Of a stretch of DNA of 64,000 nt, positions 28,101 to 51,131 are shown one piece after another. A model generated the notes under the pieces. That model was not told where the DNA came from. It made no database searches and was given only the letters and a program-made list of their open reading frames with translations. Each line of letters opens with the position of its first letter. The stretch's first letter is position 1. Source of the stretch: Parvibacter caecicola (lineage in GTDB: Bacteria > Actinomycetota > Coriobacteriia > Coriobacteriales > Eggerthellaceae). The stretch covers positions 50,719-114,718 of the forward strand of contig NZ_QIBY01000007.1 in the NCBI RefSeq assembly GCF_003725335.1, given 5' to 3'. A program made the translations under genes and the position numbers.

Positions 28101-28397
28101 GTCATCGAGGGGCACCTCTCCCCGAAGGACGTGCTCGACACCATGCGGCTGCTCTGTCGAGGCAAGGACGTACCTGATGACGCGCTCTGCAGGGCGTTCA
28201 ACAAGAAGACGAAAAACGGCAAGGACATGAGATGGGCATCCAGGCTGCTTGTTGACGCGATAGCCTCCATCGTTGAATCGAAGGCCCAAGGCGATGTTGA
28301 CAGTTTCTTCTCCTCGGGTGTCTCCACCTTCTTGGAGAATGACATCAACGGATTGGACGACTTCGAGCTCATCTGCTTTTTGGTGGTGAACGAATGA
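25158..28397 (+). CDS. SNF2-family helicase
   Basis: 1079 aa. Walker A ADSVGLGKT, DESH box VVIDESHNFRN, and a C-terminal helicase domain (QRFGRIDRIGS). Confidence 0.85.
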   Translation: MEPKFFDNKLSIVKDDLVQTIEGGDSLAVAAATFSMYAYQELKEQLDGLDDFRFIFTSQAFTQSKAPKEKREFYIPRLNREQSLFGTDLEIRLRNELTQKAIAQECANWIRAKATFKSFDGEEGMGITALTVSKDDDTVAYMPFNAFTTSELGTERSHSSYGVITRQEPATSRMLLETLDKAWDDPALVDVTEAVIDSIQTMYQENAPELIYYMALYRIFNEFLGDISEDVLPDDRVGFRESLIWNKLYDFQGDAALAIINKLETYQGCILADSVGLGKTFTALAVIKYYESRNRNVLVLCPKKLKDNWLTYRSNLVNNPIAGDQLRYDVLYHTDLSRTRGTSETGLPIGQINWGNYDLVVIDESHNFRNGGDSASKSEDKENRYQKLMERVIKQGVKTKVLMLSATPVNNRFRDLRNQLALAYAGDESTWEGKLRINGSIEDVFANAQRAFTQWTKLPPDLRTTDALTHMLDFDFFEVLDQVTVARSRKHIQRYYDMAAIGPFPRRNKPISKRPSLSTESGTINYREIYDQLESLLLSVYVPSQYLHPSKVSKYADGETNLTMAGREIGVRKLMTANLLKRLESSVHSFKLTLERVRKNMQDTLSRIDDYKLQKAEGFKVSDMEGFDAFDFDIDDDEEMSFEVGNATKFDLADMDWLSWERDIVSDVENIDILLSMIEDIGPERDAKLVELKEQIRQKAENPINPGNKKIIIFTAFADTAEYLFEHVSKFAKDGLGIETAMVTGSGSGRSTVEKLPSDMTTLLACFSPVSKEREATAPDYEGADIDILIATDCISEGQNLQDCDYLINYDIHWNPVRIVQRFGRIDRIGSTNDVIQLVNYWPDVELDEYIQLKERVEERMRITVLTSTGDDDYINEEEKGDLEYRERQLRQMQEEVVDLEDVTGGVSITDLGLNDFRMDLVGYYKDNPDIDRLPSGLHGVVKGVEPGIIFVLRNVNQDVNILGRNQLHPFYLVNIGADGSVIEGHLSPKDVLDTMRLLCRGKDVPDDALCRAFNKKTKNGKDMRWASRLLVDAIASIVESKAQGDVDSFFSSGVSTFLENDINGLDDFELICFLVVNE

Positions 28398-29023
28398 TCC
28401 AACTCCCTTCCACCACGCGTGTCGACAGGAGGCTCCCGAAGGAGGATTTCTATCGTAGGCTGAAGCTTACCGGCAAGCAGCGCGACGCCTTCGTCAACCA
28501 GATCGAGAGCATAACCATCGCAAACTCCGTGAAGCCCTCGACCATGCGAGTGTCCGACGGTGCGGAGACTCACGAGATCTTCGTAATCGACCTTGCGCTC
28601 AAGGAGTCGTGCGTCCCAGCCTTGGTCATCGAGACGATCGCAAAGGCGAACCCCCACAAGATCCTTTTCAGGAGCGAGTTCGGAAACGAGGAAGTTTTGT
28701 CGGTCTACCGACAAGGCAAGGAATGGCACACCGACTGGGTTCCGACCGAACTCGAAAGTATCTCGATTCGAGAAGACAACCTCGATGCAATCTGGGACGG
28801 GATATGTGCCGAGGTCATCTTCGGAAACCCCGCCATAAAGGACGTCGACGGAGAGCTGAAGAAGCGCCAGAAGCTCAAGAGCCTGGACGAGGAGATAGCG
28901 AAGCTGGAGCGCGCCCATGGCAAAGAGAGGCAGCTGGGAAAGCGAAACGAGCTGTTCAGAAAATTGCAGGAAGCACGAAGCGAGCGAGAAGCCGTGCTGA
29001 AAGGATGGACATGGAAAAGATAG
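28394..29023 (+). CDS. DUF4391-like protein
   Basis: 209 aa. N-terminus reads RVDRRLPKEDFYRRLKL, with a basic coiled-coil C-terminus. Its start overlaps the SNF2 stop (ATGA). Confidence 0.55.
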   Translation: MIQLPSTTRVDRRLPKEDFYRRLKLTGKQRDAFVNQIESITIANSVKPSTMRVSDGAETHEIFVIDLALKESCVPALVIETIAKANPHKILFRSEFGNEEVLSVYRQGKEWHTDWVPTELESISIREDNLDAIWDGICAEVIFGNPAIKDVDGELKKRQKLKSLDEEIAKLERAHGKERQLGKRNELFRKLQEARSEREAVLKGWTWKR

Positions 29024-31002
29024 ACACCAGGACACCGGATCTTACCGAAGAGAACATCAAGAAGCTCATCGAACTCTTCCCGCAAGTCGCCACAGAGGTT
29101 GAAGGAGATGAGGGGCAGATCGAGAGAGCGGTCGACTTCGACGCACTGCGTGATCTACTGGGGGACGTCGCCGAGGGTCAGCGCGAGCGCTACCAGTTCA
29201 CCTGGCCGGGCAAGCGTGAGGCGAAAGCAGAGGCACGCCGTCCGATTGACAAGACGATGATTCCCTGTCCTGAGAAAAGCGTCGATTGGGATACGACCGA
29301 GAACCTCTACATCGAGGGCGATAATCTCGATGCGTTAAAGCTTCTCAAAGAGACCTATGCAGGCAAGATCAAGTTCATATACATCGATCCACCTTACAAC
29401 ACGGGGAATGACTTTATCTATGATGACGATTTCACGATTTCAAAAGAGAATTATGAAGGCGGCGAAGTTTCTGTGGAAGGACGCCTTGTGGCGAACCCAG
29501 ACAGCAATGGCCGTTTTCACTCCGATTGGTGCTCAATGATATACCCGAGACTACTGATTTCTAGGGACCTTTTGACCTCAGACGGCCTTATCATTGTCAG
29601 CATTGACGACAATGAAATGCACAACTTGAGAAAGATGTGTTCAGAGATCTATGGTGACGACAATTTTATTGCCGAATTGGTATGGGAGAAAAAGAAAAAA
29701 GGGTCATTTCTTGCAAAATCAATTACAACTATCAAAGAATACCTGCTGGTATATGCGAAAAACCGATCTTCTTCGGTAAGCCTAATTAGCGACATTAATA
29801 CTGATACCGAAACCTATCCATGCGTAAATGCTCCAAATCCCAGGGAAATAAGGCGGATTCCAGCTGGAATCGAGAGCAAGTACAAGGAAAAGAACTTTTT
29901 CTTGTCCGAAGGATCCGAAATATCAGACACGACGATGAGTTTGGTTCTCCATTCAGATTTAGTAATCAACGATGGGGTCCTAGCTGAGGATTTGGTTATC
30001 GAAGGAAATTGGAGATACTCTCAAGAAATGATGACCCAGTTCGCGTTGAATAAGGAACTGTATTTGACCAGGGACCTGTATCTCCGCCGTATTGTAAACG
30101 ACGCTCGGTTAAAACCGCTGAAAGACATTCTCCCCAGAGTTGGCGAACAAGAAGCAGGAGCCCGAGGTGGCAGTATCGACCTAGATAAGTTGTCTAATTC
30201 AGGCTGGGGTTCTAACGAAGATGCAGACGAAGAGCTCCGACTACTCTTTGGCGTCCAGAGGCTTCTGGACTATCCAAAACCCGTTCGCTTGATTTTGAAG
30301 CTCCTCGCTTCAATTAGGGATCAAGATTGCACAGTCTTGGACTTCTTCTCCGGCTCAGCAACGACAGCAGAGGCCGTTATGCGTCTTAACTATTTAGATG
30401 GTGGCAATAGGAAGTTCATATTGGTGCAACTTCCCGAAGAAACAAAGACAGATTCTGTTGCAAACAAAGCAGGCTACACCACGATCGTGGAAATCGGCGA
30501 AGAGCGTATTCGTCGGGCAGGAGCGAAGATTGTTGAGGAGAGTGACGAAAAACACTCGCAGTTGGAGCTGGGCTCCGAACCTAAACCAGTCCCCGACATC
30601 GGTTTTCGTGTTCTCCGAATCGACTCGTCGAACTTCAAGGACACACATCTAACTCCAGGACAAGCCGACCAGGCATCCCTCCTTGACGCTATCGATAACG
30701 TGAAAAACGGTCGCACAGCTGAAGATATTCTGTTCCAGGTGCTACCTGCTTTCCGCATCCCGTATTCGGCGCATATCGAGAAACTCGACATCAATGGCAA
30801 AAAGGTCTTCGACGTCAATCATGGTCAGTTGCTCGCATGCTTCGATGCCGATGTGACCAACGACATCATTGAGGAGATTGCGCGGCGCAAACCTTCCTAT
30901 GCTGTGATGCGCGACCTGTCCTTTAAGGACGATTCGGCTGCAGCTAATTTCGAGGAGCTCTTCAAAACCTTCAGTCCCGACACCATCCGCCGGGTGATCT
31001 AG
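29005..31002 (+). CDS. mod: Site-specific DNA N6-adenine methyltransferase, Type III Mod-like
   Basis: FIYIDPPYNTGNDFIYDDDF (DPPY motif IV) and the AdoMet region are present. Overlaps the 3' end of the DUF4391 gene. Confidence 0.85.
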   Translation: MDMEKIDTRTPDLTEENIKKLIELFPQVATEVEGDEGQIERAVDFDALRDLLGDVAEGQRERYQFTWPGKREAKAEARRPIDKTMIPCPEKSVDWDTTENLYIEGDNLDALKLLKETYAGKIKFIYIDPPYNTGNDFIYDDDFTISKENYEGGEVSVEGRLVANPDSNGRFHSDWCSMIYPRLLISRDLLTSDGLIIVSIDDNEMHNLRKMCSEIYGDDNFIAELVWEKKKKGSFLAKSITTIKEYLLVYAKNRSSSVSLISDINTDTETYPCVNAPNPREIRRIPAGIESKYKEKNFFLSEGSEISDTTMSLVLHSDLVINDGVLAEDLVIEGNWRYSQEMMTQFALNKELYLTRDLYLRRIVNDARLKPLKDILPRVGEQEAGARGGSIDLDKLSNSGWGSNEDADEELRLLFGVQRLLDYPKPVRLILKLLASIRDQDCTVLDFFSGSATTAEAVMRLNYLDGGNRKFILVQLPEETKTDSVANKAGYTTIVEIGEERIRRAGAKIVEESDEKHSQLELGSEPKPVPDIGFRVLRIDSSNFKDTHLTPGQADQASLLDAIDNVKNGRTAEDILFQVLPAFRIPYSAHIEKLDINGKKVFDVNHGQLLACFDADVTNDIIEEIARRKPSYAVMRDLSFKDDSAAANFEELFKTFSPDTIRRVI

Positions 31003-34000
31003 ATGCAGTTCAAGTTCAAGATACAGCCATACCAAACGGCTGCAGCAGACGCGGTGACCGCTGTGTTCGAGGGTCAGCGAAGAGTTGAGCTGCTGTCGTA
31101 TATGCGCGACATCGGCAAAGTCAGACTTAAGGAATCGCTCCGGCAGAAGAGCGCCGGTCAATTTAGCCTTGGTGCGGAATTGTCGGAGTCCATGGGCTAC
31201 GGCAACGCGCCGCTCTCCATCAATGCGCAGGAGCTTCTGCGCAATATCAACCGTGTGCAATCACGAAACCAGCTGGAAGAGTCGTTGGAGCTGTCCTGCG
31301 ACATCGGAGCCTGCCAGCTGGATGTGGAGATGGAAACTGGTACCGGTAAGACCTATGTCTACACCAAGACCATGTTCGAGCTCAACCGCCTCTACGGATG
31401 GACGAAGTTCATCATCGTGGTACCTTCCATCGCCATCCGCGAGGGCGTAAACAAGAGCCTCCAGAGCACCGAGCAGCACTTCTTCGAGCAATACGAGCGC
31501 TCGATCCGCTACTTCATCTACGACTCCGACAGGTTGAACGAGTTGGATGCATACTCGCAGAGCGCTGACATCAACGTAATGATCATCAACATGCAGGCAT
31601 TCAACTCCTCCATGAAGGAGGGAGCCAACAATAAGGCGGCCCGCATCATCTTCGACGAGCGAGACGACTTCGGGAGCCGCCGCCCCATCGACGTCATAGC
31701 AGCCAACAACCCCATCGTCATCGTCGACGAGCCCCAGAAGATGGGCAAGAAGAACTCTGCCACCTGGAAGGGCATCGAGCGGTTCAATCCGCTGTTCGTG
31801 CTGAACTACTCGGCGACCCACCGTGAGAAGCACAACATGGTGTACGCGCTGGACGCCCTGGACGCATTTAACGAGAAGCTGGTCAAGCGCATTGAAGTGA
31901 AGGGCTTCGAGCTCAAGAACATGCGCGGCACCGACGGCTACCTCTATCTCAAGGACATCATCGTCTCCAAGAACAAGGCCCCTGTGGCCGTGGTCGAGTT
32001 CAAGGCAATGTCGGCCGGAGGCAAGGTGGTCAAGAAGACCATGCGCTTCAACGAAGGCGACAGCATCTACGACGCCACCGGGGACATCCGCCTTGAGGCC
32101 TACCGCGACTACGTGATCGCGTCGGGCAACGACGGCATCGTGCCCGATCAGGACGGTCGCATCGGCTACGTACGGTTCCTCAACGGCGAGGTGCTCCAAC
32201 GAGGCGTGGTTTACGGCGACTCGGCCGAGGACGACATGCGCCGCGTGCAGATCCGAGAGACCATCGCCTCCCACCTACAGAAGGAGGAGGCTCTCTTCTA
32301 CCGAGGCATCAAGTGCCTATCGCTCTTCTTCATAGACGAGGTGGCAAAGTACAGGGACATCTCCGGCAACGGGGAGACCGTGGGCTACGGCAAGGTTTTC
32401 GAGGAGGAGTACGAGCGCGCCGTCGAGGAGCGCCTCTCCAACCCGACCCTAGACGACGAGCGCGAGCGAGCCTACCTCGACTACCTGAGGCGCGATACGG
32501 CGCATGCCGTACACTCCGGCTACTTCAGCATCGACAAGAAGGGCAATGCGATCGAGAGCTCCGAGAAGAAGGCCGAGCAGACAGACGGTTTGGGCGCGAA
32601 TGACGAGAACGCCCAGCGCGCCTACGATCTGATCCTGAAGGACAAGGAGCGACTGCTCTCCTTTGAGGAGCCTGTGCGGTTCATCTTCAGTCACTCTGCC
32701 CTTCGCGAAGGATGGGACAACCCGAACATCTTCCAGATCTGCACGCTCAAGAGCTCCGGTTCCGAGACCGGCAAGCGCCAGGAGGTGGGACGAGGACTGC
32801 GCCTCTGCGTGGACCAGAAGGGCGAGCGTCAGGACGCAATGTATCTGGGCACCCGCGACGTGCACAATGTGAACGTGCTCACCGTAGTGGCTTCCGAGAG
32901 CTACTCGTCGTTCGTGGACGCCCTGCAGAAGGACATCAAGGCGGAGCTTCGCGACCGCCCGACCGTCGTAGAGATGGACTTCTTCGCAGGACGCCAGGTC
33001 ACACTTCCCAACACTGGCGAGACCGTGACGTTCAGTGAGCGCGAGTCCAAGGAGCTCTACAAGTGCCTCATCAAGGGCGACTTCCTCGACGACAACGACC
33101 GCCCGTCGTGTAAGTTCCGCGAGGGAGGCTTCTTCGAGTATGCCATCGTGAATCTGCCCGAGGACATGCGCGAGGAGCCGAAGCTCCAAGCCGCCGAGCT
33201 GCTCGTAAGGAGCGCCTACGATCCGAGCGCGCTCTCCGCCATGATCACCGACGGCAATGTACCCAAGATCACGAGAAACGCGCTCAACGACAACTACTAC
33301 AGGCGCGAGTTCCAGGAGCTCTGGAAGAGGATAAACAAGAAACACGCCTACACGGTGTCGTTCGACGACGAGGAACTAATCCGAAAGGCTGTGACTGCAA
33401 TCGATGCGAACCTTCAGGTGAGCGAGCTGTCCTACACGATCACTACGGGAACTCAAAAAGAAACTGCGAAGCGCGAGGACATAGAGGACAGGACTCACTT
33501 CAAGACCAAGAGCGCGGAAAGCAGGGCACTTGAGCTTGACGAACGCATTGACGTCACCTATGACCTAGTCGGTGAGGTGGCTCAAGCGGCCAAGGTCACG
33601 CGACGCACAGCAGCGACTATCCTCTCGCGCATTAGCCCCTTAAAGTACTCTCTCTACAAGCGGAACCCTGAGGAGTTCATCAAGAAGGCCAGCTCCATCA
33701 TCGTGGACGAGAAGGCGACAACGGTCATCGACCATGTCTCTTACCACCAAATCGACGAGGAGTTCGACACCAACATCTTCACCGAGCGCATGCCTGAAAA
33801 CATTTCCAAGGCACTCAAGGCCCAGAAGAACATCCAGGATTACGTGTTCTTCGACAGCCAGAAGGAAAAGGAGTTCGCTGAAGCGATGGATGTAGCCACC
33901 GAAGTCTGTGTCTATGCCAAGATGCCGCGTACATTCACGATACCGACACCTGTTGGCGAGTACGCACCCGACTGGGCGATTGCCTTCAACGAGGGTGCTG

Positions 34001-34185
34001 TCCGGCACATCTACTTCATTGCGGAGACCAAGGGCACCATGGATTCGATGGAATTGAGCACGGTGGAGCAGACGAAGATCGCGTGCGCTAAGAAGGTTTT
34101 CAACGAGCTATCGACCTCGCAAGTTCGATACCACGAAGTATCTACCTATGATGAGCTGCTCACAGTAATCCAAGGAGTGGAGTAG
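31003..34185 (+). CDS. res: Type III restriction Res-like subunit (DEAD/DEAH helicase plus C-terminal PD-(D/E)xK nuclease)
   Basis: Walker A METGTGKT, IVIVDEPQ, and C-terminal PDWAIAF...IYFIAETKG. Its ATG immediately follows the mod stop. Confidence 0.85.
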   Translation: MQFKFKIQPYQTAAADAVTAVFEGQRRVELLSYMRDIGKVRLKESLRQKSAGQFSLGAELSESMGYGNAPLSINAQELLRNINRVQSRNQLEESLELSCDIGACQLDVEMETGTGKTYVYTKTMFELNRLYGWTKFIIVVPSIAIREGVNKSLQSTEQHFFEQYERSIRYFIYDSDRLNELDAYSQSADINVMIINMQAFNSSMKEGANNKAARIIFDERDDFGSRRPIDVIAANNPIVIVDEPQKMGKKNSATWKGIERFNPLFVLNYSATHREKHNMVYALDALDAFNEKLVKRIEVKGFELKNMRGTDGYLYLKDIIVSKNKAPVAVVEFKAMSAGGKVVKKTMRFNEGDSIYDATGDIRLEAYRDYVIASGNDGIVPDQDGRIGYVRFLNGEVLQRGVVYGDSAEDDMRRVQIRETIASHLQKEEALFYRGIKCLSLFFIDEVAKYRDISGNGETVGYGKVFEEEYERAVEERLSNPTLDDERERAYLDYLRRDTAHAVHSGYFSIDKKGNAIESSEKKAEQTDGLGANDENAQRAYDLILKDKERLLSFEEPVRFIFSHSALREGWDNPNIFQICTLKSSGSETGKRQEVGRGLRLCVDQKGERQDAMYLGTRDVHNVNVLTVVASESYSSFVDALQKDIKAELRDRPTVVEMDFFAGRQVTLPNTGETVTFSERESKELYKCLIKGDFLDDNDRPSCKFREGGFFEYAIVNLPEDMREEPKLQAAELLVRSAYDPSALSAMITDGNVPKITRNALNDNYYRREFQELWKRINKKHAYTVSFDDEELIRKAVTAIDANLQVSELSYTITTGTQKETAKREDIEDRTHFKTKSAESRALELDERIDVTYDLVGEVAQAAKVTRRTAATILSRISPLKYSLYKRNPEEFIKKASSIIVDEKATTVIDHVSYHQIDEEFDTNIFTERMPENISKALKAQKNIQDYVFFDSQKEKEFAEAMDVATEVCVYAKMPRTFTIPTPVGEYAPDWAIAFNEGAVRHIYFIAETKGTMDSMELSTVEQTKIACAKKVFNELSTSQVRYHEVSTYDELLTVIQGVE

Positions 34186-34186
34186 C

Positions 34187-35419
34187 GTGGAGTGCTTCAA
34201 CGGAAACAGCTCGTACAGTATCTTCGAGAACCTAAAAGCACGCCTTAAGGAAGATATATCTGAGTTAAAAGCTGAAGAGTTGGATAGCACTGACAGGGAT
34301 GCCTGGGTGGACTATTGGGAAAACGAATACTATTGCCCTCCTGTTGAGCTTTATCCCGACAACGCTGAGCTTGGCCTGACCCAACAATCGGTTCAGCAAT
34401 ACAATAGCTGGCATCATGCTGCATGGGACGAGCCCGAATACTTTGAAGTTGAAGGCGCTAGGGCAACCTGCAAGGTCCCATATTCCGGGACCCCGTGGTT
34501 CTTTAAGATGCAGCCGTCAACCTTCACGCTTTCAGGCCATTATGCCGAGAAGGTCACCGATCCAGGATCAGATGGTTTTGGTTACATTACCTTTGCCCTA
34601 GAAACCCCACTCGGTAGCGCCACGCCCGAGGGAATACGAAAGTTCTTTTCGGATCAAATAGAAGACTTCTCCGAGCAAATTGAGTGCTGCAACAAGGACG
34701 CGGAAAGCTACAACAATTCTCTTAGGCAAATCATCGAAGCAGCTTTAGACAAAAGGATTGAGCAACTTGATAAGTTCGCTTCCCTTCGACGAGGACTGAA
34801 TCTTCCCTTAAATCGCGTAAAAGATGCTCCTTTGGCCATGCCTCTTCACTTACAAAAGAAGACCCTGAAAGTTTCAAGGCCTGAAAAGATCCCAAGCGCC
34901 GAGCAATCCTACTCTATTGATGACGCAACATACAAACACATAACAGATGTAATAGAAAGCTCCGGAGCCATGATGGAGAGAGCTCCCGAGGCTTACAACG
35001 GCATGGAAGAAGAGCATCTAAGGGATGTGCTATTGAGCGCCCTGAATACTCATTACCAAGACCAAGTGAACGGCGAGGCTTTTCGCAGACATGGAAAGAC
35101 GGACATTCAGATTCCCGTCAACAATCATGCTGCGTACATCGCGGAATGCAAGCTGTGGAAGGGGCCAAAGGCTTTCAAGGACGCGCTCGCACAACTGTTC
35201 TCATATACGACGTGGCGCGACACCAAGGTATCCGTAATCGTATTCAATAAGAAGAACAAAAACTACGAGAAAGTGCTCGACGCAATTGACGAAGTTTTGG
35301 AGGGAGAATCGATTACTTGCGATCGACACAAGCACTCTCAGTGGCTTTGCAAAATACAGAACGAAGAAGATGAAAGGATTATGCACGTAACGGTCCAGGT
35401 TTTCGATTTGTCCTTATAG
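34187..35419 (+). CDS. Hypothetical protein with C-terminal PD-(D/E)xK-like motif
   Basis: GTG start 1 nt after the res stop. TDIQIP...IAECKLWKG fits D...ExK. No other recognised domain. Confidence 0.5.
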   Translation: MECFNGNSSYSIFENLKARLKEDISELKAEELDSTDRDAWVDYWENEYYCPPVELYPDNAELGLTQQSVQQYNSWHHAAWDEPEYFEVEGARATCKVPYSGTPWFFKMQPSTFTLSGHYAEKVTDPGSDGFGYITFALETPLGSATPEGIRKFFSDQIEDFSEQIECCNKDAESYNNSLRQIIEAALDKRIEQLDKFASLRRGLNLPLNRVKDAPLAMPLHLQKKTLKVSRPEKIPSAEQSYSIDDATYKHITDVIESSGAMMERAPEAYNGMEEEHLRDVLLSALNTHYQDQVNGEAFRRHGKTDIQIPVNNHAAYIAECKLWKGPKAFKDALAQLFSYTTWRDTKVSVIVFNKKNKNYEKVLDAIDEVLEGESITCDRHKHSQWLCKIQNEEDERIMHVTVQVFDLSL

Positions 35420-35572
35420 GCAGCGACCGAACAGTGGCATTAGCGGAGGCGCAACGCTACGTCGATGAACGCGCAGATCAAGCGCTTGTTGGATCTATCA
35501 CGAGCGCGAACTTGAGGATGCTGTCCAGACTCTTGCACGCAACGCTATCTCAACTCGAATCGACGCCCGCAA

Positions 35573-37120
35573 CTAAACTGAGGCCAGCATGTCTTTTCGG
35601 ATAAAACTTATGCCCGCCCGCTTCATTGATCTCCATTGGCCCGATAGGCTTCCTTGTTTCAAAGCTTCATAGCAGAATAGCCAGTAACGATCCATGTCTG
35701 TATTTTTCAGCCTCAGAGCGACTTTATTAAGTGGCTTCACCTGCGTTGCATCTCTTTTCCAGTGATTTTGTTTCATGAAATAAATCCATGTCATGGTCAG
35801 AAGCAGACAATCTTTGCTTTTAATTACGTACTTCTGCGCCTCACAATAATCGCTTTCGAATCCATCGAGTACAAAGCCGAACCTAACGGCAAAATAAATC
35901 GCATAGCACAAGCTTTCGTAGTCGTTTAGCCTGATTGCTTCTTGATATATCGTATCCGAAAATTTTTTGATGTCGCCTATGTCTACTCCATATGGGATAA
36001 AAATATATTCTTCCATTAATTGCAGAAGATATGGGTAGAGGACCGCCATATGCATGAATCGCTTTGCTGCCAGCCTTTTCCCATTATTGGAAAGATCTAA
36101 TCCTTTCAACTTCTTAATGGCGTAATTAATTATTGCGAAGTCATCCAATTCCATTGCCAGCTTTAACGCTGTATCAATGAACGTGTTGACTTGCGGGTAT
36201 TCAACCATACCTGACTCACCCACTTTGGGCAAATCGCTCAATTGGTGCTTCCAGTCTTTCTCTGCGCCAATAGGAAGCTCGATGATCCGTGTCTTCTTGT
36301 GATTCAGAAGCAAATCGAATTCGCGAAGCGCCTCTTCGAGGTTTTTGAGGAACCGCTGCCCTTCATCAAAACTAGATACGTAACAACTATAATCATCTAC
36401 ATTCCTAACATAGCGATAACCATTATCGTAGAGCTCCTTGTCTATGGTCGTCAAAATTATCTCTGAAATTAGGTTTGACGCATGGGGCCCAATGAGAAGC
36501 CCATGTGTTTCACCATTACGCATATCTGAACATGCCTTATCAATCCTGTTGTACCAAATATCATCGTGAATTGTTCTTTTCGCTACTTCTTTTCCGACCA
36601 AGGCCCATGGTATCGAATGTGTATAAATACTGGGGAAACACGTGGAGATATCAGCTTTAACAAGGAAACGGCTCACCCCGTTATCGTGCATCAACAAATC
36701 TGATTCCGGATCTCCATCTACTCGCCAGTTCTTGTAAGTCATCTCGAAAATCCGTTTTTCATTGCGCTTTTTACGGATATGGATTCGACTAACACAATAA
36801 CTTTGTCCATCTGTCTGTGCGCGAAAATGAGCGCGTATCTCATCCCAGTCATTTGCAAGTTCACGACATACTCTTTGGTACTTGAAAGGATTAGGGATGC
36901 CCATAAGGCGCGGCACACCGATATTACGCATTGCCCGAAAAGTTATATATTCATTCCAGGTTGCTTCAAATGAATTAGATGCCGTTTTGCAGTAATCGAA
37001 GAAAGGAACAGCAGTAAACACCGGAGGAAGCTTTTCAGGAAAAAACCCATACGCAAGAAAACCCTCATACAGTTCGTCAGAGGATATTTCATCCAAAAAA
37101 TCTATATAACACCTATCCAC
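35573..37120 (-). CDS. Reverse transcriptase, defence/Abi-type, with about 200-aa C-terminal extension
   Basis: RT motifs 2 (KADISTCFPSIYTHSIPWAL), 4 (GLLIGPHASNLISEIIL), 5 (YVRNVDDYSCYV) and 6 (LLLNHKKTRII). AT-rich gene. Confidence 0.8.
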   Translation of the reverse strand: MDRCYIDFLDEISSDELYEGFLAYGFFPEKLPPVFTAVPFFDYCKTASNSFEATWNEYITFRAMRNIGVPRLMGIPNPFKYQRVCRELANDWDEIRAHFRAQTDGQSYCVSRIHIRKKRNEKRIFEMTYKNWRVDGDPESDLLMHDNGVSRFLVKADISTCFPSIYTHSIPWALVGKEVAKRTIHDDIWYNRIDKACSDMRNGETHGLLIGPHASNLISEIILTTIDKELYDNGYRYVRNVDDYSCYVSSFDEGQRFLKNLEEALREFDLLLNHKKTRIIELPIGAEKDWKHQLSDLPKVGESGMVEYPQVNTFIDTALKLAMELDDFAIINYAIKKLKGLDLSNNGKRLAAKRFMHMAVLYPYLLQLMEEYIFIPYGVDIGDIKKFSDTIYQEAIRLNDYESLCYAIYFAVRFGFVLDGFESDYCEAQKYVIKSKDCLLLTMTWIYFMKQNHWKRDATQVKPLNKVALRLKNTDMDRYWLFCYEALKQGSLSGQWRSMKRAGISFIRKDMLASV

Positions 37121-37150
37121 TGATAAGCTAACTCCTTATTTACGGTAAAT

Positions 37151-37171
37151 CTACTCCCACTCAACCGCATC
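37151..37171 (-). other. Remnant copy of the guaA 3' end (encodes ...AVEWE-stop); candidate att core of an integrative element
   Basis: The reverse complement of CTACTCCCACTCAACCGCATC reads DAVEWE*. It is homologous to the guaA terminus at 56604 and to the copy at 44801. Confidence 0.5.
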
Positions 37172-37254
37172 AAGCAGCCCTTTTTGTATTATGGGCACTA
37201 TCATTTCCATCTCGTGCTTCATCGTCCAACTCTTGTGCTCTGGTTTCAGTATCG

Positions 37255-37512
37255 TTTTGAACTCACTTCAAAGAAGTCGAGAAGGACTTAAATCCTGGAA
37301 TAAAACCAAGGAGCAGATCCTGGTTCTCTGAACTGGGATTTTATTATATCCGGGAATGTTTTGAGTTCAGGATTCCGGGTACATCGTCTCGAACCCTCGA
37401 AAATTTACGCGACAGGAATAGTTCAGGAATAAACACAACCCTTGGGAGTAAATCGCTGACCAGCAGAAATGTGAAACCCTGAGTTCAAAGTGAGTTCAAA
37501 TTGAGTTCAGGG
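37255..37512. repeat. Cluster of TGAGTTCAAA-type direct and inverted repeats (three tandem copies at 37480-37512, others at 37361 and 37258); candidate integrase arm-type sites
   Basis: Repeats seen directly in the sequence, adjacent to the 37151 att-like copy. Confidence 0.45.
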
Positions 37513-37573
37513 AACGTGAGGGCAATTACGGGCAAGCCAGCCGCTACTAGTCCTGTTGGCCTGAATGAGATAA

Positions 37574-38142
37574 TTGAAGCCTGATGTCCCGAGTGGCTTC
37601 TCGCATCAGAAGCAAACGTCGGAGACGCCGAATACAGCTCCCGGAGGATCAAAAGGCATGAACCATAGCAACGACCGCTACATCACGAACACATTGAGGC
37701 GTCGGGGGCGCGTTTGCAATGTTCTCCTCGGGTTGGCTTTGGTGATTCTGCTATCGTCCATTTTCACGTCCCCGCCGAGGTGCCGCTGCAGTGGGGAGCT
37801 GACGGTGATGTTGATGCTTATGGGTCTCCATGGCTGACGCTCATCGTGTGGGCCGTCCTTGCCGCCGTCGTCGCTTTGCGCAGGCTCGTCGTTGCAAATG
37901 TTGACGTGCGGTACTGGAACAAGCCGCCTAAAATACAACCATCTGAATTGGACGATTGGTATGCCCACAGCATGAGTGTCACGTACAACGTGTGCTTGAT
38001 GATTTCCGTTGTGGCTCTGGGAGTGGCATTGATCTATATGCTTCGCATCTATTGGCTAATGTTTCCCTTCATCGTCATAGCCGCTCTAGCTGTGATCGCG
38101 TACAGCGTATATGCAAACTCTAATCGGAGCAAAGACTCCTAG
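37574..38142 (+). pseudogene. DUF1648/SdpI-like membrane protein gene with a frameshift near 37740-37770
   Basis: The N-terminal TM helix (NVLLGLALVILLSS) is in frame 2. The DUF1648 core (IVHFHVPAEVPLQWGADGDVDAYGSPW) plus the C-terminal TMs are in frame 1 (ORF 37714..38142). Confidence 0.5.
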
Positions 38143-38151
38143 CCATCAGCA

Positions 38152-38183
38152 AGACCTACGTGGACAAATTGTCCACGTAGGTA
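38152..38183. repeat. Perfect 14-bp inverted repeat ACCTACGTGGACAA / TTGTCCACGTAGGT (hairpin or operator)
   Basis: Seen directly, between the DUF1648 pseudogene and the toxin-antitoxin promoter. Confidence 0.5.
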
Positions 38184-38212
38184 TGACCTGGTGTTTCTTC
38201 TGCAAAACTAAA

Positions 38213-38253
38213 TTGATATTGACTAAGTGTATATCATAGTATACAATCTGTGT
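38213..38253 (+). promoter_or_regulatory. Sigma-70-like promoter (TTGACT-17-TACAAT) overlapping the TGTATA..TATACA palindrome upstream of the toxin gene
   Basis: -35 TTGACT at 38219-24 and -10 TACAAT at 38242-47. The ATG at 38254 lacks an SD, so the mRNA may be leaderless. Confidence 0.5.
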
Positions 38254-38553
38254 ATGTTGGAGATTCTGCAGACAGATGAATTCATCAAATGGATGAAGCG
38301 GCTTCGAAATGCCGATGCTAGAGCGCGCATCAACGTGCGAATCCGCAGGATCTCGCTCACGGGGAACTTCGGCGATACGAAGCCCGTCGGTGACGGAGTC
38401 TACGAGCTGCGCATCGACTACGGACCCGGGTACCGCGTGTACTACTCCCAACACAGAAGCGAGGTTGTCCTGCTGCTCATCGGCGGGGACAAGTCCTCGC
38501 AGCAGAAGGACATCGACAAGGCCAAAAGACTCAATGCGGAATACGAAGGATAG
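38254..38553 (+). CDS. Type II toxin, RelE/ParE superfamily (HigB-like addiction-module killer protein)
   Basis: MLEILQTDEFIKWMKRL...GVYELRIDYGPGYRVYY...LLLIGGDKSSQQKDI, typical of the addiction-module killer family. Confidence 0.72.
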   Translation: MLEILQTDEFIKWMKRLRNADARARINVRIRRISLTGNFGDTKPVGDGVYELRIDYGPGYRVYYSQHRSEVVLLLIGGDKSSQQKDIDKAKRLNAEYEG

Positions 38554-38562
38554 AGGACGATC

Positions 38563-38844
38563 ATGAAGACGGCTACGAAATGGGATGCCTCCGAATACTT
38601 GGAGACCGAAGAGGACATGGCGGCCTACTTGAACGCCGCGCTCGAGGATGGCGACACCTCCGTGGTTGCCGCCGCCCTCGGCGATATCGCACGAGCAAAG
38701 GGAATGACCCAACTCTCCAAGGAGACCGGTATCACCAGAGACGGGCTCTACAAGGCATTGTCTCCTACAGGGAACCCGTCGTTTGATACGGTGCAAAAAG
38801 TCGTTAAAGCGTTTGGGCTTAAGCTTGATGTTGCTACTGCGTGA
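38563..38844 (+). CDS. HigA-family antitoxin (HTH addiction-module antidote protein)
   Basis: 93 aa reading ...AAALGDIARAKGMTQLSKETGITRDGLYKAL. It lies 9 nt after the toxin stop. Confidence 0.72.
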   Translation: MKTATKWDASEYLETEEDMAAYLNAALEDGDTSVVAAALGDIARAKGMTQLSKETGITRDGLYKALSPTGNPSFDTVQKVVKAFGLKLDVATA

Positions 38845-38938
38845 ATGTAACAACAACGCGCAACACTAGCTCTTGGATTTATGTCTCAGACGGGATCCAC
38901 ATATGGAAACAGCTCTTGGAGAAAAGGATTAATTCTGG

Positions 38939-41900
38939 ATGGAAGTAGCCTCGACGCTTGTCTCACTTGCCAGCAAATTAGGCCTGTCAAGCTTATTGGA
39001 TAAAGTCAAAAAATGTAAAAAGAACAGGAAGCTACATCAGATTCGAGAAGATTATCTAACTAGGTCTACATTTGTATCATTCCAACAAGCGCCTCTTTCA
39101 GATTTATTTCAAAATAATGCTTTGTGCGAAGAGCTAATTGCCCATTGTCGCAAAGGCGACTTAGCAAAATCCGCAGTAGTTAATACTTTTCTTTACTCTT
39201 CAAAAGAGGCCCCCTCCGAAGGGCGCTTCTTTGATGCGGAAAAGCTTGTAGGTAATTTTTTTGATGAAGTGGCTGCCGTAATATTCCAGCCAATTGACAA
39301 AAAAGACGAACCCCTTTCTGCAGCGATACAAGAAGGCATCGCCGAAACCAGAGAACTTCAGTCTGACGTTCAGCAGAGCTATAAACAAATGGAAGCGAAG
39401 GTTGATGCTCTAACGGCATCTTTGACAGAGCAACTTGGCTTCTCTTCGCTGACGTTACTCATAAATGCAGTAGAAGACGGGTCGGTTTTGTTTGCCGATT
39501 TCGAATCTGCAGTTGAGACCGATAAAAGTAATAGTGTTTCAGGCAAATATCTTTCTGTATACCTCTCTCTATGTAAAGGTGAAAACCCATGCTTTGATAT
39601 ATCGGACTTCAAGGTCATTGGAACTCCTCTTGCTTCCTCACTGGCTTCGTTGGCAATTTCGACAGGGCAATTGAACACCGCCGTCTGCGTTCTTGGCCTC
39701 TATGACGAAGGAGCCAATTGCGCTAAGGCTGTTGGGGAGATTATTAATAATCCAAATATCGATGAAGAAACGAATCGATATGAGATTGCCGCAGATTCCC
39801 CTTTCTCGCCTTTTGCATGCGTTTTGAATGCCGAGCTCGCATTCATGAACAAAGCCTACGTAATTGCAGACGATCAATTCGCATTGTGCGAAGGGCGACT
39901 TAATCCAGTAGCAAAATGTCATAGTGACATTTCACGCATATGCAAAGCAATGCAGTATTCATTGACTTCTATTTCTCCTGATGACGTAAGGAACTTTGCC
40001 GGGGATTTCCCACTGTGGGGTAGCACATCGCTAAAACATGAATATGGAGAAATCCTTGAAGTTGCTCTTGATCTGATTGGCGAAACAAGTGCAGCGGAAA
40101 TCATTTCGTCTCTTCCTGAGGAAGCGCTGCAACACTTGCCAAACGCACAGCTTCAAGCAGAGATAAGCACGTGCGACGATATCGATAGATTGAGACACTT
40201 ATGCGAAAAGTCGTTGATAAAGCAGCTTTTCCCTGCATTCTTTACATGCGCAGAAGAACTTATATCCAAAGATCCCTCTTGCACGTTGTGGTTAAAACAA
40301 CTGGTAGAGAAGGAGGCTGAGAATGTTTTGGTCAGCAACTTTCTTTTCTTCCTCTTCTATGTCGATAAATTGAATCCATGCGTCTCTTATGAAGAGTACA
40401 AGTACCATGAAAGCTGTTACAGAAATGACCCTCGATTTCATCTGCATGCATACAGGCTGTTTAAGAGCAGCAACCCCGAAGAGGCCTGCAGCCATATCGA
40501 AATGGCACTAAGTCTAATGGCCGCAGGGCAGACATTACCGTGCCCAGACTATTCGAGAGAATGGGTTTGCTATCTTCATGAAAACGAACGTGACTTTCAG
40601 GTGATCGACCTAGTCAGACGATTCGCACCCGTAATTCCCGCAAGGGCTTTCAAGTCAATCGCATTTGCTATAGAAGAACCGTTAGATAAATCGGTTCTCG
40701 CAAGAGAGCTCTTCGAGTTGCTGGAGCAATCGGAGAACGATGATCCGGAGCTGACATGCTTGCTTGCGCAGTATCATGGATTTGTTGCAAATGATCAGCT
40801 TAAAGCGCTCAAGTTCGCAAAGCTATCCTTCAAAAAGCGCCCCTCTCTCGACGCAGCACGGTCCCTGGTTTATGCATCACTTGGCTTATCGTTAGGCATC
40901 CCCGAAGAAGTTGAGCAGTATGCTCTCAATCAAAAGAGCACAGAGCTCGACATGCTCATCGCCGAGCATTACCGGAGAGAGAAAAAGGACTCAAAAGCAG
41001 ATTATCTTTTAAAGCGAGCTATTTTTGATAATAGACCAGACTCCCACCGCGCAATTGCCGCATACGGCTGCAGCCATTTGAGCGATGCCGAGAAAGAGAA
41101 ACCAACTAAGATTGACCACAATACCTGCGCATGCTTGGAAAACAAGGAATCGGGACAGCTGGTCGTAGCTTTTCACTCGGAATCTGATTTGATTCCGAGT
41201 GAAGGAGTTAATGCTCTCGGGATGCAGAACTACACAACAGCATCTCCCCAATATCTTGCAATGCGAGATCATGCCGTTGGAGATCGCGTGCAACTTGGCT
41301 CAGAGTACTGGGAAGTTGTAGACGTAAACAACGTAGATGACGTCATCGGAAAAAAGACCATGGAGATAATCGCAGAAGACCCCTCAACGGTGGTCTTCTC
41401 TTCCCCTGATGGAGACATCGAAGATGTGATTCGGCAAATCTCTGAATACATGGAAGAGCACAAACAGCAGAGCAACGTTTATTCTGACGGCATTCGAGTT
41501 AACGATGGCACAGTTGTTTTTCTGGGGATCGAGACAGGGTGTGCGCTCTACCCCATCAAGCCATTTGAGTTTATCCTAAATGTGCTCAAAGGGGATGATG
41601 TCCCATTTCGGAGAATAGAAATAGGCTTTTCTTCTCCCATGACAGGGGAAGAGACGTTTCTTCTCTCTTATAATGCCATCGTTCTTCTGGCTGCTCTTGA
41701 AGAGCTAGGCGTCGACTGTGACCCAATCATGAGTCGTTGCAGCATTACCACATCAACGAAAAAACGTCTGCAGCTAGACATTCAAGATTATTCTGATTCG
41801 TTATACGGCGCTGGGAAAATGGTTTCAGTCGATGGACGCGCCACTCTATTGCAGTATGACGCTGCAGCCAAGCAAGAACTGAGCGCAATTTGCGCAAATA

Positions 41901-42280
41901 CATTAGGCTTTCTTAACAAATTGAGACAAGTTGAACTTGCTCAGATCGATAAGCTTCCTTCAAGTTTCCCGTTTCTTGACCAGAATACGCTAGGCGACAT
42001 GGAAACGGCAAGACAAGGTGGGATGTTTTATGTGACAGAAGACTGTTTTCAGGCGCTTTTCTCTGATATTTCCGAATCCGCCCCTCAGAGATGCAGTCTG
42101 TACAGTCTTCTTATTGCACTCGGAATGAGGGAAGCCGCCCTGTTTGCACTTCCGAAAGCAATGCACCAGTGGGGAGCCGATCCGTATGTTGATGTCAATG
42201 TTGCTAACGTGGTAATTCAGATTCTTGAGTCGTTTACGCAAGGCGCCGGAAGCCCCATACCAAATGAACAAGATACGTAA
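38939..42280 (+). CDS. Large hypothetical protein (1113 aa), AT-rich, predicted alpha-helical
   Basis: Long uninterrupted ORF at about 42% GC in a high-GC genome. No Walker A motif and no recognisable catalytic motif. Confidence 0.5.
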   Translation: MEVASTLVSLASKLGLSSLLDKVKKCKKNRKLHQIREDYLTRSTFVSFQQAPLSDLFQNNALCEELIAHCRKGDLAKSAVVNTFLYSSKEAPSEGRFFDAEKLVGNFFDEVAAVIFQPIDKKDEPLSAAIQEGIAETRELQSDVQQSYKQMEAKVDALTASLTEQLGFSSLTLLINAVEDGSVLFADFESAVETDKSNSVSGKYLSVYLSLCKGENPCFDISDFKVIGTPLASSLASLAISTGQLNTAVCVLGLYDEGANCAKAVGEIINNPNIDEETNRYEIAADSPFSPFACVLNAELAFMNKAYVIADDQFALCEGRLNPVAKCHSDISRICKAMQYSLTSISPDDVRNFAGDFPLWGSTSLKHEYGEILEVALDLIGETSAAEIISSLPEEALQHLPNAQLQAEISTCDDIDRLRHLCEKSLIKQLFPAFFTCAEELISKDPSCTLWLKQLVEKEAENVLVSNFLFFLFYVDKLNPCVSYEEYKYHESCYRNDPRFHLHAYRLFKSSNPEEACSHIEMALSLMAAGQTLPCPDYSREWVCYLHENERDFQVIDLVRRFAPVIPARAFKSIAFAIEEPLDKSVLARELFELLEQSENDDPELTCLLAQYHGFVANDQLKALKFAKLSFKKRPSLDAARSLVYASLGLSLGIPEEVEQYALNQKSTELDMLIAEHYRREKKDSKADYLLKRAIFDNRPDSHRAIAAYGCSHLSDAEKEKPTKIDHNTCACLENKESGQLVVAFHSESDLIPSEGVNALGMQNYTTASPQYLAMRDHAVGDRVQLGSEYWEVVDVNNVDDVIGKKTMEIIAEDPSTVVFSSPDGDIEDVIRQISEYMEEHKQQSNVYSDGIRVNDGTVVFLGIETGCALYPIKPFEFILNVLKGDDVPFRRIEIGFSSPMTGEETFLLSYNAIVLLAALEELGVDCDPIMSRCSITTSTKKRLQLDIQDYSDSLYGAGKMVSVDGRATLLQYDAAAKQELSAICANTLGFLNKLRQVELAQIDKLPSSFPFLDQNTLGDMETARQGGMFYVTEDCFQALFSDISESAPQRCSLYSLLIALGMREAALFALPKAMHQWGADPYVDVNVANVVIQILESFTQGAGSPIPNEQDT

Positions 42281-42450: not shown

Positions 42451-43780
42451 CGTACAATCTCTTGCGCACTTTGACAGCAGCATAGTCTAGATACCAAAAG
42501 ACACGGCTCTGGCCTTCGGTATGATTTGAGTGTCGAATTCAATCATGCTAGGAGGCTGAGCCATGTCCGATCCCATCGTATCATTCGACGAGGCCGCCAT
42601 GCGCGGCGAGCTCAAAGAACTCGTCCGCCAGACGGTCGAGGACACCCTGAACGCGCTTCTCGAGGAGGAAGCCGACGACCTCATAGGCGCAGACCGCTAC
42701 GAGAGGACGGCCGACCGCGAGGCGTACCGCGCCGGCCACTACGAGCGGGGGCTCACCACCACATCGGGGCAGGTCATACTGAAGATGCCCAAGCTCAAGG
42801 GCATGAGGTTCGCAACGGCGATCATCGAGCGCTACAGGCGCCGGGAGACCTCCGTGGAGGAGGCCATGATCGAGATGTACCTGGCCGGGGTGTCCACCAG
42901 GCGCATCGAGGACGTCTCCGAGATACTCTGGGGCTCGTCGGTGTCCGCCGCCACCGTGTCCAATCTCAACGAGAGGGCGTTCGAGGCCGTCGAGGAGTGG
43001 AGGAGCAGGCCGCTGACCCGCCCCTACCCCTACGTCTTCGTCGACGGCATCTACCTCAAGCGCTCCTGGGGCGGCTCGTTCGAGAACGTGGCCGTGATGG
43101 TGGCCATAGGCGTCAACGACGACGGCTACCGCGAGGTGATAGGCGCCGCCGAGGGCTTCACCGAGTCCGCCGAGTGCTGGCGGGAGTTCCTCTCGTGGCT
43201 GAAGGGCCGCGGCCTCTCCGGCGTGCGCATGTTCACCGGCGACAAGGCCGCCGCCATGACCGGGGTCATCGCCGAGGTGTTCCCAGAGGCTGCCTATCAG
43301 CGCTGCACGGTGCACTTCTACCGCAACGTCCTGGCCAAGGTGCCGAAATCAAAGAGGAGCCAGGTGGCGGCCATGCTCAAGGCCATCCACTCCCAGGAGT
43401 CGCTGGAGGCCAGCATGGAGAAAGCCAGCGACGTCGCCGCCAAATTGGACGGCATGAGGCTGGCGGCGGCAGCCAAGTGCGTTCGCGACGGCATCGCGGA
43501 GACGCTGACCTACACGCGCTTTCCAATGCGGCACTGGCGTCGTATCCGCACCAACAACGCCATAGAGAGGCTGAACCGCGAGATCCGCCGCCGCACGCGA
43601 GTGGTGGGCACGTTCCCCGACGGTAAGAGCGCCCTCATGCTGGTGATGGCCAGGCTCAAGTACGTGGCCGACAGCGAGTGGGGATCGAGGAGGTACCCGG
43701 ACGTGTCGCTGCTGGGCGAGTGATCATGCCGACGGCTGACCGCCGGCTGCTGGAATTTGCGCAAGAATCTGGACAGTACC
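42446..43780 (+). mobile_element. IS256-family insertion sequence, about 1.33 kb
   Basis: Imperfect terminal inverted repeats GGTAACGTACAATCTCTTGCGCAC..CAGCAGC (left) and GCTGCTGG..TGCGCAAGAATCTGGACAGTACC (right) flank a mutator-type transposase. GC content is higher than in neighbouring DNA. No target-site duplication was found. Confidence 0.75.
42563..43723 (+). CDS. IS256-family (mutator-type) transposase
   Basis: 386 aa with family signatures YERGLTTTSGQVILKMPKLKG and FPEAAYQRCTVHFYRNVLAKVPK. Confidence 0.9.
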   Translation: MSDPIVSFDEAAMRGELKELVRQTVEDTLNALLEEEADDLIGADRYERTADREAYRAGHYERGLTTTSGQVILKMPKLKGMRFATAIIERYRRRETSVEEAMIEMYLAGVSTRRIEDVSEILWGSSVSAATVSNLNERAFEAVEEWRSRPLTRPYPYVFVDGIYLKRSWGGSFENVAVMVAIGVNDDGYREVIGAAEGFTESAECWREFLSWLKGRGLSGVRMFTGDKAAAMTGVIAEVFPEAAYQRCTVHFYRNVLAKVPKSKRSQVAAMLKAIHSQESLEASMEKASDVAAKLDGMRLAAAAKCVRDGIAETLTYTRFPMRHWRRIRTNNAIERLNREIRRRTRVVGTFPDGKSALMLVMARLKYVADSEWGSRRYPDVSLLGE

Positions 43781-44948: not shown

Positions 44949-45266
44949 TCAACTTTCCCGTTTAGAAAGACCCAACGAATTCATCCTTGATTGGACTCTG
45001 CTCAATTCAGTATTTAACTGTGTAACGTATGCCGCACATACCTCTCCATAAAGATCATGCACGCGTTCTTCTGGAATATCAGCAACGACCTGAATATCTT
45101 CATTGACCATCTGCGCTAGAAGTGCATCGAAGACGCTCTTTACTTGCTCCTCGTTGGTCTCGTCATCTAAATTCAAATCTTGATCTGCTCCCCCAATATT
45201 GAAGCGAAGAATATTATTTCCATTTTCTCTTTGAGTAAGCACCGCTTTAACAACTTGCACTGTCAT
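44949..45266 (-). CDS. Small hypothetical protein downstream of the Ppl-like gene
   Basis: ORF overlapping the 3' end of the Ppl-like gene. No motif. Start uncertain. Confidence 0.25.
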   Translation of the reverse strand: MTVQVVKAVLTQRENGNNILRFNIGGADQDLNLDDETNEEQVKSVFDALLAQMVNEDIQVVADIPEERVHDLYGEVCAAYVTQLNTELSRVQSRMNSLGLSKRES

Positions 45267-47370: not shown

Positions 47371-47376
47371 TAATTC

Positions 47377-49364: not shown

Positions 49365-49378
49365 GAAAGGAGATCCAG

Positions 49379-50769: not shown

Positions 50770-50888
50770 GGTTCAGCTTTCACAGCCTTCACGGCTTTCA
50801 TCCTCGGAGGCGTTGAGAAGCGTTTTAAGGCTTCACTTGGCATCAATCCGAGGAACAAGCCGCTCTAAGGCCTTAGGAGTCTTTATTC

Positions 50889-51038: not shown

Positions 51039-51131
51039 GAAACTGGCCGGCGACGGCTTACGCCGTCCGCTTCCCAGTTTGCGGGGGATCCCCCGCGCCC
51101 CTTAATCAATCTCAAAAGAAAGGAGCCATTC

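Follow-up and report, generated by a model that had tools for sequence, protein, structure and literature searches.

A probable stand-alone DRT4 (UG15) reverse transcriptase gene in a mosaic defence island of Parvibacter caecicola

The window, a 64,000-nucleotide (nt) stretch of Parvibacter caecicola DNA, contains a complete reverse transcriptase (RT) gene at 35573..37120 on the minus strand. The gene has 515 codons followed by a stop codon at 35573-35575 and is defined by its open reading frame (ORF), a PADLOC Drt4 match and an exact public match. Specifically, its 515-aa product, hereafter the RT, is identical to WP_123185554.1 of P. caecicola. Sequence comparison and structure prediction indicate that the RT very probably belongs to DRT4 (UG15), a family of Class 1 UG/Abi RTs, and would act against phage as a single protein. 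Translation starts at GTG 37120-37118, and a Shine-Dalgarno-like AAGGAG, read from the sequence at 37137-37132 (minus), lies 11 nt 5' of this codon. Because an in-frame TAA is located six codons 5' of the GTG (37138-37136), a longer form or an alternative start is ruled out. The N-terminus aligns in register with the ATG starts of homologues, 1965 of which are found in the database at E ≤ 1e-10. The gene is real and intact, and its matches are far beyond chance.

The initial annotation described an orphan defence RT of Abi type or DRT/UG class with a C-terminal extension, located in an AT-rich patch. All four RT motif peptides that it quoted are present in the ORF: CFPSIYTHS (aa 161-169), GLLIGPHASNLISEII (aa 207-222), YVRNVDDYSCYV (aa 237-248) and LLLNHKKTRII (aa 270-280). 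The labelling of the motifs needs correction, since CFPSIYTHS, which was called motif 2, directly follows the catalytic Asp157 and, by the usual RT1-7 numbering, is part of motif 3 (A). The AT-rich patch is real. The RT gene has a GC content of 0.42 and a GC content at third codon positions (GC3) of 0.44, against 0.65 for the backbone, and by its composition ranks among the most foreign genes of the island in which it lies.

Pfam recognizes only the generic RVT_1 domain in the RT (E = 1.6e-8, aa 145-280). In the PADLOC library, the Drt4 model PDLC02178 matches the RT with 672 bits (E = 1.3e-202), aligning aa 2-511 with profile positions 2-504 of 506, and the general Drt4 model PDLC03752 gives 537 bits. 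The remaining three of the five Drt4 sub-models give 291, 248 and 242 bits. Among the other PADLOC groups, the scores are 302 bits for Drt6, 188 for UG30, 162 for UG14, 142 for AbiK and 117 for AbiP2. As a control, residues 9-478 of E. coli DRT4, taken from the PDB-sequence alignment, were run through the same library, with 688 bits for PDLC02180, 558 for the general Drt4 model, 352 for PDLC02178 and 282 for Drt6. The ranking is the same and the best sub-model differs, indicating that the RT and E. coli DRT4 belong to one family but to separate subclades.

Searches against solved structures give the same order. With phmmer against PDB sequences, E. coli DRT4/UG15 entries are at the top (E = 2e-40, RT aa 16-487, 31% identity), with 142 bits for DRT4 and 108 bits for DRT6, followed by Abi-P2 and AbiK. 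With a profile built from 88 family members, DRT4 receives 355 bits, DRT6 248, Abi-P2 138 and AbiK 130. The initial proposal of an Abi-type or DRT/UG-class defence RT, made without assigning the family, is therefore supported, and profile, sequence and fold all point to DRT4 (UG15). Because DRT4 (UG15) is a Class 1 UG/Abi RT, the RT is probably related to AbiK and Abi-P2.

An AlphaFold2 model of the RT, built on the alignment of the 88-member family profile, has a mean predicted local distance difference test (pLDDT) score of 94.5 and a predicted template-modelling score (pTM) of 0.91. RT fingers and palm without a thumb (aa 1-288; 36257..37120, minus) are assigned from the RVT_1 match, the predicted secondary structure and the match to the DRT4 fold, with predicted β-hairpins at aa 152-158 and 237-248. 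From aa 289 on the model is all-helical, with 12-13 helices. In Foldseek searches of the PDB, the full-length model matches DRT4 (9vdo) with template-modelling (TM) scores of 0.80/0.83, the UG15 crystal structure comes next, and further matches are DRT6 (0.79), AbiK (0.70) and Abi-P2 (~0.56).

A C-terminal alphaRep domain, a HEAT-like α-helical repeat, defines Class 1 UG/Abi RTs (PMC9226505), and in DRT4 this domain, with about 12 helices, takes the place of the thumb (PMC12783706). Given the helical model and the full-length match to the DRT4 fold, the C-terminal ~227 aa of the RT (aa 289-515; 35576..36256, minus) is assigned as an alphaRep domain, with support from the family-profile alignment and conserved columns. 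The C-terminal domain noted at the outset is thus present, but it is larger than the ~200 aa proposed and is of a recognizable kind. The family-profile alignment extends to E. coli DRT4 residue 506, the last ordered residue. The terminal motif W..MK.AGISF is intact in the RT, with W480, K500 and F506 conserved.

Functional residues of E. coli DRT4 have been named (PMC12783706). They are the catalytic D149, D240 and D241, the palm residue Tyr125 for priming, the deoxynucleoside triphosphate (dNTP) contacts R75, N271 and K274, the interface residues F140 and E202/H204, and the product contacts K24, S26, N124, Y238 and Y337, of which Y238 stacks on the product 3' end and N124 contacts product bases. 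Conservation of the corresponding positions was assessed in 110 diverse homologues (26-55% identity) and 119 close homologues (65-99% identity). Asp157 of motif A, a ligand of the catalytic metal (codon 36650..36652, minus), corresponds to E. coli Asp149, and the catalytic hairpin of motif C, N240-V241-D242-D243 (36392..36403, minus), corresponds to Y238-I-D240-D241. D157, D242 and D243 are invariant in both sets (110/110 and 119/119), and no substitution of the motif 5 aspartates was found.

E. coli Tyr125 aligns with Tyr129 of the RT (codon 36734..36736, minus), which lies in the palm within FEM-(N/T)-Y, part of the family motif (I/L)F-x-M-(N/T)-Y, and is the predicted protein-priming residue. 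This column is Tyr in 91 of the 110 diverse and all 119 close homologues. R71, N273 and K276 align with R75, N271 and K274; N273 and K276 are invariant among the diverse homologues and R71 is nearly so. Similarly, Y337 corresponds to Y333 and the E202/H204 pair to E204/H206, positions that are likewise invariant or nearly so in the diverse set. Among the close homologues, a single Phe at Y333 is the only variation at a catalytic, priming or contact position. The E. coli residues that are essential by mutation are thus kept in the RT, namely D149, D240/D241, Y125, R75, E202/H204 and probably K24 (as K30).

The column of the priming tyrosine varies within the family. Tyr is missing from it in 11 of the 88 family members. 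Most members without Tyr at this column have a Tyr-containing insertion upstream; in several of them (for example P0127, P0131 and P0191) the insertion is 20-30 residues long and lies just upstream, and in one member the Tyr sits in a duplicated 'IFEMIY' motif. The alignment suggests that the priming site was relocated in some lineages of the DRT4-like family.

Several observations weigh against reading the RT as a DRT4 that functions like the E. coli enzyme. The NCBIfam Drt4 equivalog NF041749 gives 371.2 bits on the RT and misses its curated cut-off of 450, and identity to the sole biochemically studied DRT4 is only 31%. E. coli Tyr238, the product-stacking residue, is Asn240 in the RT, and Asn124 is Thr128. 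Phe140 of interface 1 aligns with Met144, which is followed by a subclade-specific insertion of 4-5 residues, and nothing in the RT corresponds to the disordered tail of 34 residues in E. coli DRT4 (507-540). P. caecicola is Gram-positive and anaerobic, and it may lack direct counterparts of the nuclease ExoI and the phage trigger T5 ORF55 known from E. coli. Finally, the RT gene has 42% GC in a 65% GC host, where it may or may not be expressed, and a sigma-70 scan of the intergenic region 5' of the gene finds no promoter-like site with an E. coli-type consensus that may not fit a Coriobacteriia host. The counts of promoter and terminator scans are not above those of shuffled controls.

NF041749 was apparently trained on another subclade, and its shortfall does not outweigh the remaining DRT4 tests; the score below the cut-off explains why RefSeq names WP_123185554.1 only "RNA-directed DNA polymerase". 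The residue before I-D-D is H in 36, Y in 29 and N in 26 of the 110 diverse homologues, and position 240 is Asn in 101 of the 119 close homologues, where Val241 is rare (2/119). Given that this residue differs between members of the family and is mostly Asn among close homologues, N240 is a trait of the subclade and does not define the family. As far as the alignment of the oligomer interfaces goes, the interface 2 pair is kept as E204/H206 and interface 1 has M144 with the insertion for F140, so a hexamer is not assured for the RT. Judged from these alignments, the subclade of the RT is marked by N-(I/V)-D-D in place of Y-I-D-D, by an inserted loop adjacent to the trimer interface and by the absence of the disordered tail.

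Two other interpretations of these positions were considered and rejected. NVDD was taken as a possible sign of an aberrant active site, which the family-wide variation and the subclade norm of Asn do not support. A pairwise alignment placed Gly148 opposite the trimer-interface Phe140, suggesting its loss, whereas the multiple alignment places Met144 there, in a conserved hydrophobic column.

The same subclade traits allow a second reading, which we regard as unlikely. Here the RT would belong to a large N-I-D-D subclade of DRT4 with an altered product, oligomer or regulation, possibly with another pair of host nuclease and phage trigger in Gram-positive anaerobes. Such a subclade could range over anaerobic gut and rumen Bacillota, Spirochaetaceae and Coriobacteriia. 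If this is true, the differences in product could concern length or base bias.

It is very improbable that the RT instead belongs to a neighbouring Class 1 UG/Abi group (DRT6/UG12, UG30 or UG14), with the same general chemistry but possibly another priming site, product or trigger. The Drt6 score exceeds those of three of the five Drt4 sub-models, the fold is nearly as near to DRT6 as to DRT4 (0.79 and 0.80), and the NCBIfam Drt4 score is under the cut-off. However, the two top Drt4 models are far above Drt6, E. coli DRT4 itself has the same pattern including its own Drt6 match of 282 bits, and DRT4 ranks above DRT6 both by sequence and by profile. The priming Tyr at the palm position specific to DRT4 is also present in the RT.

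We give equally little credence to the idea of a passenger, a low-GC gene of recent transfer that is inactive or unexpressed and lies idle in a high-GC host. The deviating composition (GC 0.42 and GC3 0.44 against 0.65) and the upstream intergenic region without a promoter-like match would fit such a gene, as would the presence in its 90% cluster of proteins truncated to 452 and 436 aa. Against this, the frame is intact with a good Shine-Dalgarno sequence, all functional residues are preserved, and many independent contigs carry the identical protein (23 in one look-up, 17 in another). As for the promoter scan, its consensus is of the E. coli type and uninformative for Coriobacteriia.

The DRT4 gene is flanked by genes of other kinds. 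Four co-directional genes with overlapping or abutting frames occupy 25158-34185 on the plus strand and encode an SNF2 helicase (DrmD-like), a DUF4391 protein, a type III Mod and a type III Res. The next gene on the plus strand (34187-35419) begins 2 nt past the end of Res, is convergent to the RT gene and encodes a 410-aa PDC-S54 candidate, with a full-length PADLOC match (E = 1.7e-116) and no match in Pfam or NCBIfam. This gene appears to be operonic with the restriction-modification (R-M) system and not with the RT gene. On the other side, a DUF1648 membrane protein gene lies beyond 37713 and is divergent from the RT gene. The initial statement that no maturase, Cas or effector gene is adjacent is confirmed among the annotated neighbours.

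To regard the RT as one part of a multi-gene system, with the convergent PDC-S54 protein, the type III R-M operon or the divergent DUF1648 gene as effector or sensor, is to adopt a very improbable reading. All eight loci with the identical RT protein have the same neighbours, PDC-S54 is itself a catalogued defence candidate, and an extra domain of ~430 aa in some family members indicates that accessory modules exist in the family. However, these eight loci are all copies of one and the same island. At loci with RTs of 68-81% identity, the gene context is quite unlike that of the window. For example, a 68% identical DRT4 in a low-GC organism has a Gabija-like OLD-TOPRIM and UvrD pair beside guaA, another homologue lies near a Hypoth_Ymh gene and a 1310-aa protein without known function, and further contexts in Clostridia, other Bacillota, Spirochaetaceae, Murdochiella and Agathobaculum are varied. 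The fused extension is unlike every gene in the window, the position of PDC-S54 at the Res stop codon places it with the R-M operon, and DRT4 has been shown by experiment to protect as a single gene (PMC12783706).

Neighbours and flanks were compared with those of 19 loci outside the island that have RTs of 74-81% identity. In tblastn searches of these loci, none of seven neighbouring window proteins recurs; the sole match spans 52 aa (E = 6e-5) and lies over 4 kb away from the RT gene. In blastn searches of the same loci, neither flank of the RT gene shows similarity (best E = 0.44), and homologue loci have only ~65-240 nt of intergenic space between the RT gene and unrelated genes. Rfam gives no match in 33000-40000 at E ≤ 1 and none in the whole window at the gathering score. 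The RT gene is thus a stand-alone gene without a conserved partner gene or a known RNA family. The unconserved neighbours and flanks and the lack of Rfam matches fit the published design of DRT4 as a single gene free of non-coding RNA (ncRNA) (PMC12783706).

As far as they reach, these tests also dispose of the vanishingly improbable case of a retron or group II intron RT with an overlooked RNA partner, since the weak generic similarity to a group II RT/maturase (TIGR04416, 47.6 bits) and to retron St85 (23 bits) is far under the NCBIfam cut-offs (300 and 235), group II intron and retron RTs resemble the model in its fingers/palm core alone (TM 0.3-0.4) and do not cluster with the RT, an alphaRep domain stands where a maturase (X) or thumb domain would be, and neither an intron nor an msr-msd RNA is found by Rfam beside flanks that are unconserved among homologues.

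Two side observations concern the surroundings and the relatives of the DRT4 gene. The sequence TGAACTCA occurs five times within 37256-37512, in the intergenic region 37121-37713 between the RT gene and the divergent DUF1648 gene, and has nine copies over the window as a whole, where 1.7 would be expected. Among the copies, three 11-nt units stand in tandem at 37480-37512, and 37256-37268 and 37488-37500 form a perfect inverted pair of 13 nt. Three independent metagenome contigs stop 153 or 257 nt 5' of the RT gene, each 8 nt past a copy of TGAACTCA. The array could be an operator array or a junction of recombination or strain variation; other DRT4 loci show no conservation of this region.

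The second observation concerns length. Nine of 150 DRT4-like representatives (P0132, P0140, P0156, P0160, P0162, P0164, P0179, P0186 and P0188) are 841-950 aa long and carry a C-terminal extension of ~430 aa beyond the alphaRep domain. Among themselves the extensions share 36-41% identity, and they have no match in Pfam or PDB sequences and no similarity to genes of the window. By eye, 'IDFSGLH' and 'PMHDSF' in the extension may resemble the palm motifs of family-A polymerases. A fusion link between the RT and PDC-S54, an idea raised by members of ~930 aa, was rejected, as the extension is dissimilar to PDC-S54 and to the genes of the window.

The RT gene lies inside a dense mosaic of defence genes and mobile elements, an island put together by several insertions. 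Backbone GC in the window is ~65%, and the mosaic low-GC region spans roughly 24-56.5 kb. GC3 is uneven in the four-gene block upstream of PDC-S54 (0.86 for SNF2, 0.80 for Res and 0.55 for Mod), and the low value for Mod suggests an exchange of all or some of the methylase. Beyond the RT gene, a Gp49/HI1420 toxin-antitoxin pair (38227-38844) is directly followed by a 1113-aa ORF on the plus strand (38939-42280; GC 0.45), which has no match in Pfam, PADLOC or NCBIfam, is kept in all island copies and may be an undescribed defence-island gene. An IS256-family (Transposase_mut) transposase gene at 42563-43723 on the plus strand is host-like inside the low-GC island (GC 0.66, GC3 0.91).

On the minus strand, 45247-47865 encodes a 707-aa ATPase with a 162-aa helix-turn-helix (HTH) protein (capH/RmrA-like) directly upstream. 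The ATPase has a partial PADLOC match to PDC-M49A (E = 1.4e-32) and an NCBIfam match below the cut-off to TrlF-family AAA-like ATPase, and the pair may be a further defence candidate. A second mobile module at 48192-56132 comprises a tyrosine integrase, AAA_25, a serine resolvase, an SPFH protein with a zinc ribbon and Abi_2. A metagenomic variant of the island (L001, 447-2039) has guaA (GMP synthase) beyond the transposase and a 257-aa gene. In the low-GC organism mentioned above, which is unrelated, the 68% identical DRT4 and the Gabija-like pair lie immediately downstream of guaA (L015-L019, 2064-3599). The region next to guaA may thus be a recurrent insertion hotspot for defence genes.

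The host, P. caecicola, is a member of the Actinomycetota, class Coriobacteriia, from mouse gut. The closest relatives of the RT are found in low-GC gut and rumen bacteria, with RT genes of 0.31-0.40 GC, indicating that the RT gene was acquired horizontally across phyla.

How the DRT4 candidate would act can be outlined from its E. coli counterpart. E. coli DRT4 is a hexamer, a dimer of trimers, which is needed for activity, and it constitutively makes single-stranded DNA (ssDNA) of random sequence from the hydroxyl of Tyr125 without template or primer; the host ExoI trims this product, and in infection long ssDNA builds up and the cell dies in abortive infection (PMC12783706). Since the essential residues are retained and the fold is the same, the chemistry of E. 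coli DRT4 is the best-supported one for the RT. By homology with E. coli DRT4, we infer the activity, oligomeric state, trigger and abortive outcome in P. caecicola. The location of the gene in a defence island lends indirect support to a role in protection against phage.

Specifically, the RT would work, probably as a hexamer, without an RNA template or a nucleic-acid primer. The hydroxyl of Tyr129 in the palm would prime DNA synthesis, Asp157, Asp242 and Asp243 would hold two metal ions, Arg71, Asn273 and Lys276 would place the incoming dNTP, and the alphaRep domain would stand in for the thumb. The predicted product is ssDNA of random sequence covalently bound to the RT. In the uninfected cell, host 3'-5' exonucleases would hold this ssDNA short. 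During infection, a phage ssDNA-binding protein would shield its 3' end, and the ssDNA would accumulate and lead to cell death or growth arrest before phage release.

The RT is an ordinary DRT4/UG15 member, and the family, structure and mechanism of DRT4 have already been published (PMC12783706, PMC9226505): the family was defined in 2020-2022, and structure and mechanism followed in December 2025 (PMC12783706). Its gene is detectable automatically by standard defence finders. The RT is distinctive only at the level of its subclade (N-(I/V)-D-D, the inserted loop, the absence of the tail and the NCBIfam score below the cut-off), and it raises no new question. Its value is mostly one of annotation: WP_123185554.1, "RNA-directed DNA polymerase" in RefSeq, is very probably a DRT4 defence enzyme, and because the NCBIfam cut-off misses it, its 119 close homologues, and with them its entire subclade of gut anaerobes, may be under-annotated likewise. 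The locus also documents a cross-phylum gene transfer into a mosaic defence island of mouse-gut Coriobacteriia. As a divergent subclade, it offers a reasonable second example for the generality of the E. coli DRT4 model, namely the priming Tyr, the hexamer and the logic of nuclease and trigger.

Among known systems, DRT2, DRT9, DRT3a and the retron and group II intron RTs have in common with the RT a palm/fingers core with catalytic aspartates, but they need a structured RNA as template or scaffold, and neither a conserved flank nor an RNA family was found at the RT locus. AbiK and Abi-P2 (PDB 7r06, 7r07, 7r08) are closer in kind. Like the RT, they are Class 1 UG/Abi RTs with a helical repeat domain, and they carry out protein-primed, template-independent DNA synthesis in abortive infection, features that the RT would share by homology. 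They are more distant from the RT than DRT4 is (142 and 117 bits in PADLOC, TM 0.70 and 0.56). In addition, the priming Tyr of AbiK (Y44) and Abi-P2 (Y61) is in a loop of the fingers and not in the palm (PMC12783706), unlike the conserved Tyr of the RT, which is at the palm position of DRT4.

DRT6/UG12 of Sphingopyxis sp. (PDB 9wy8) resembles the RT in architecture, in fold (TM 0.79) and as a single gene. Template-independent, protein-linked DNA synthesis has been reported for it, with a trigger logic as in DRT4 (PMC12783706). The RT nevertheless scores lower on DRT6 than on DRT4 by PADLOC (302 against 672 bits), PDB sequence (108 against 142) and profile (248 against 355).

DRT4/UG15 of E. 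coli 12-c8-a (Mestre et al. 2022, PMC9226505; Wang et al. 2025, PMC12783706; PDB 9vdo, 9vdv, 9l9s, 21ou; see also Gao et al. 2020) differs from the RT in its best PADLOC sub-model, PDLC02180 instead of PDLC02178, and in its proteobacterial host, in contrast to a Gram-positive Coriobacteriia anaerobe. It has Y-I-D-D, N124, F140 and the tail 507-540, whereas the RT has N-V-D-D, Thr, Met with the insertion, and no tail. The two also have features in common. Both are encoded by a single gene in a defence island, without an ncRNA, and have fingers and palm followed by alphaRep without a thumb. Both also have the palm Tyr used for priming in E. coli, the catalytic Asp triad, the dNTP contacts, the stacking residue Y337 and the E202/H204 pair.

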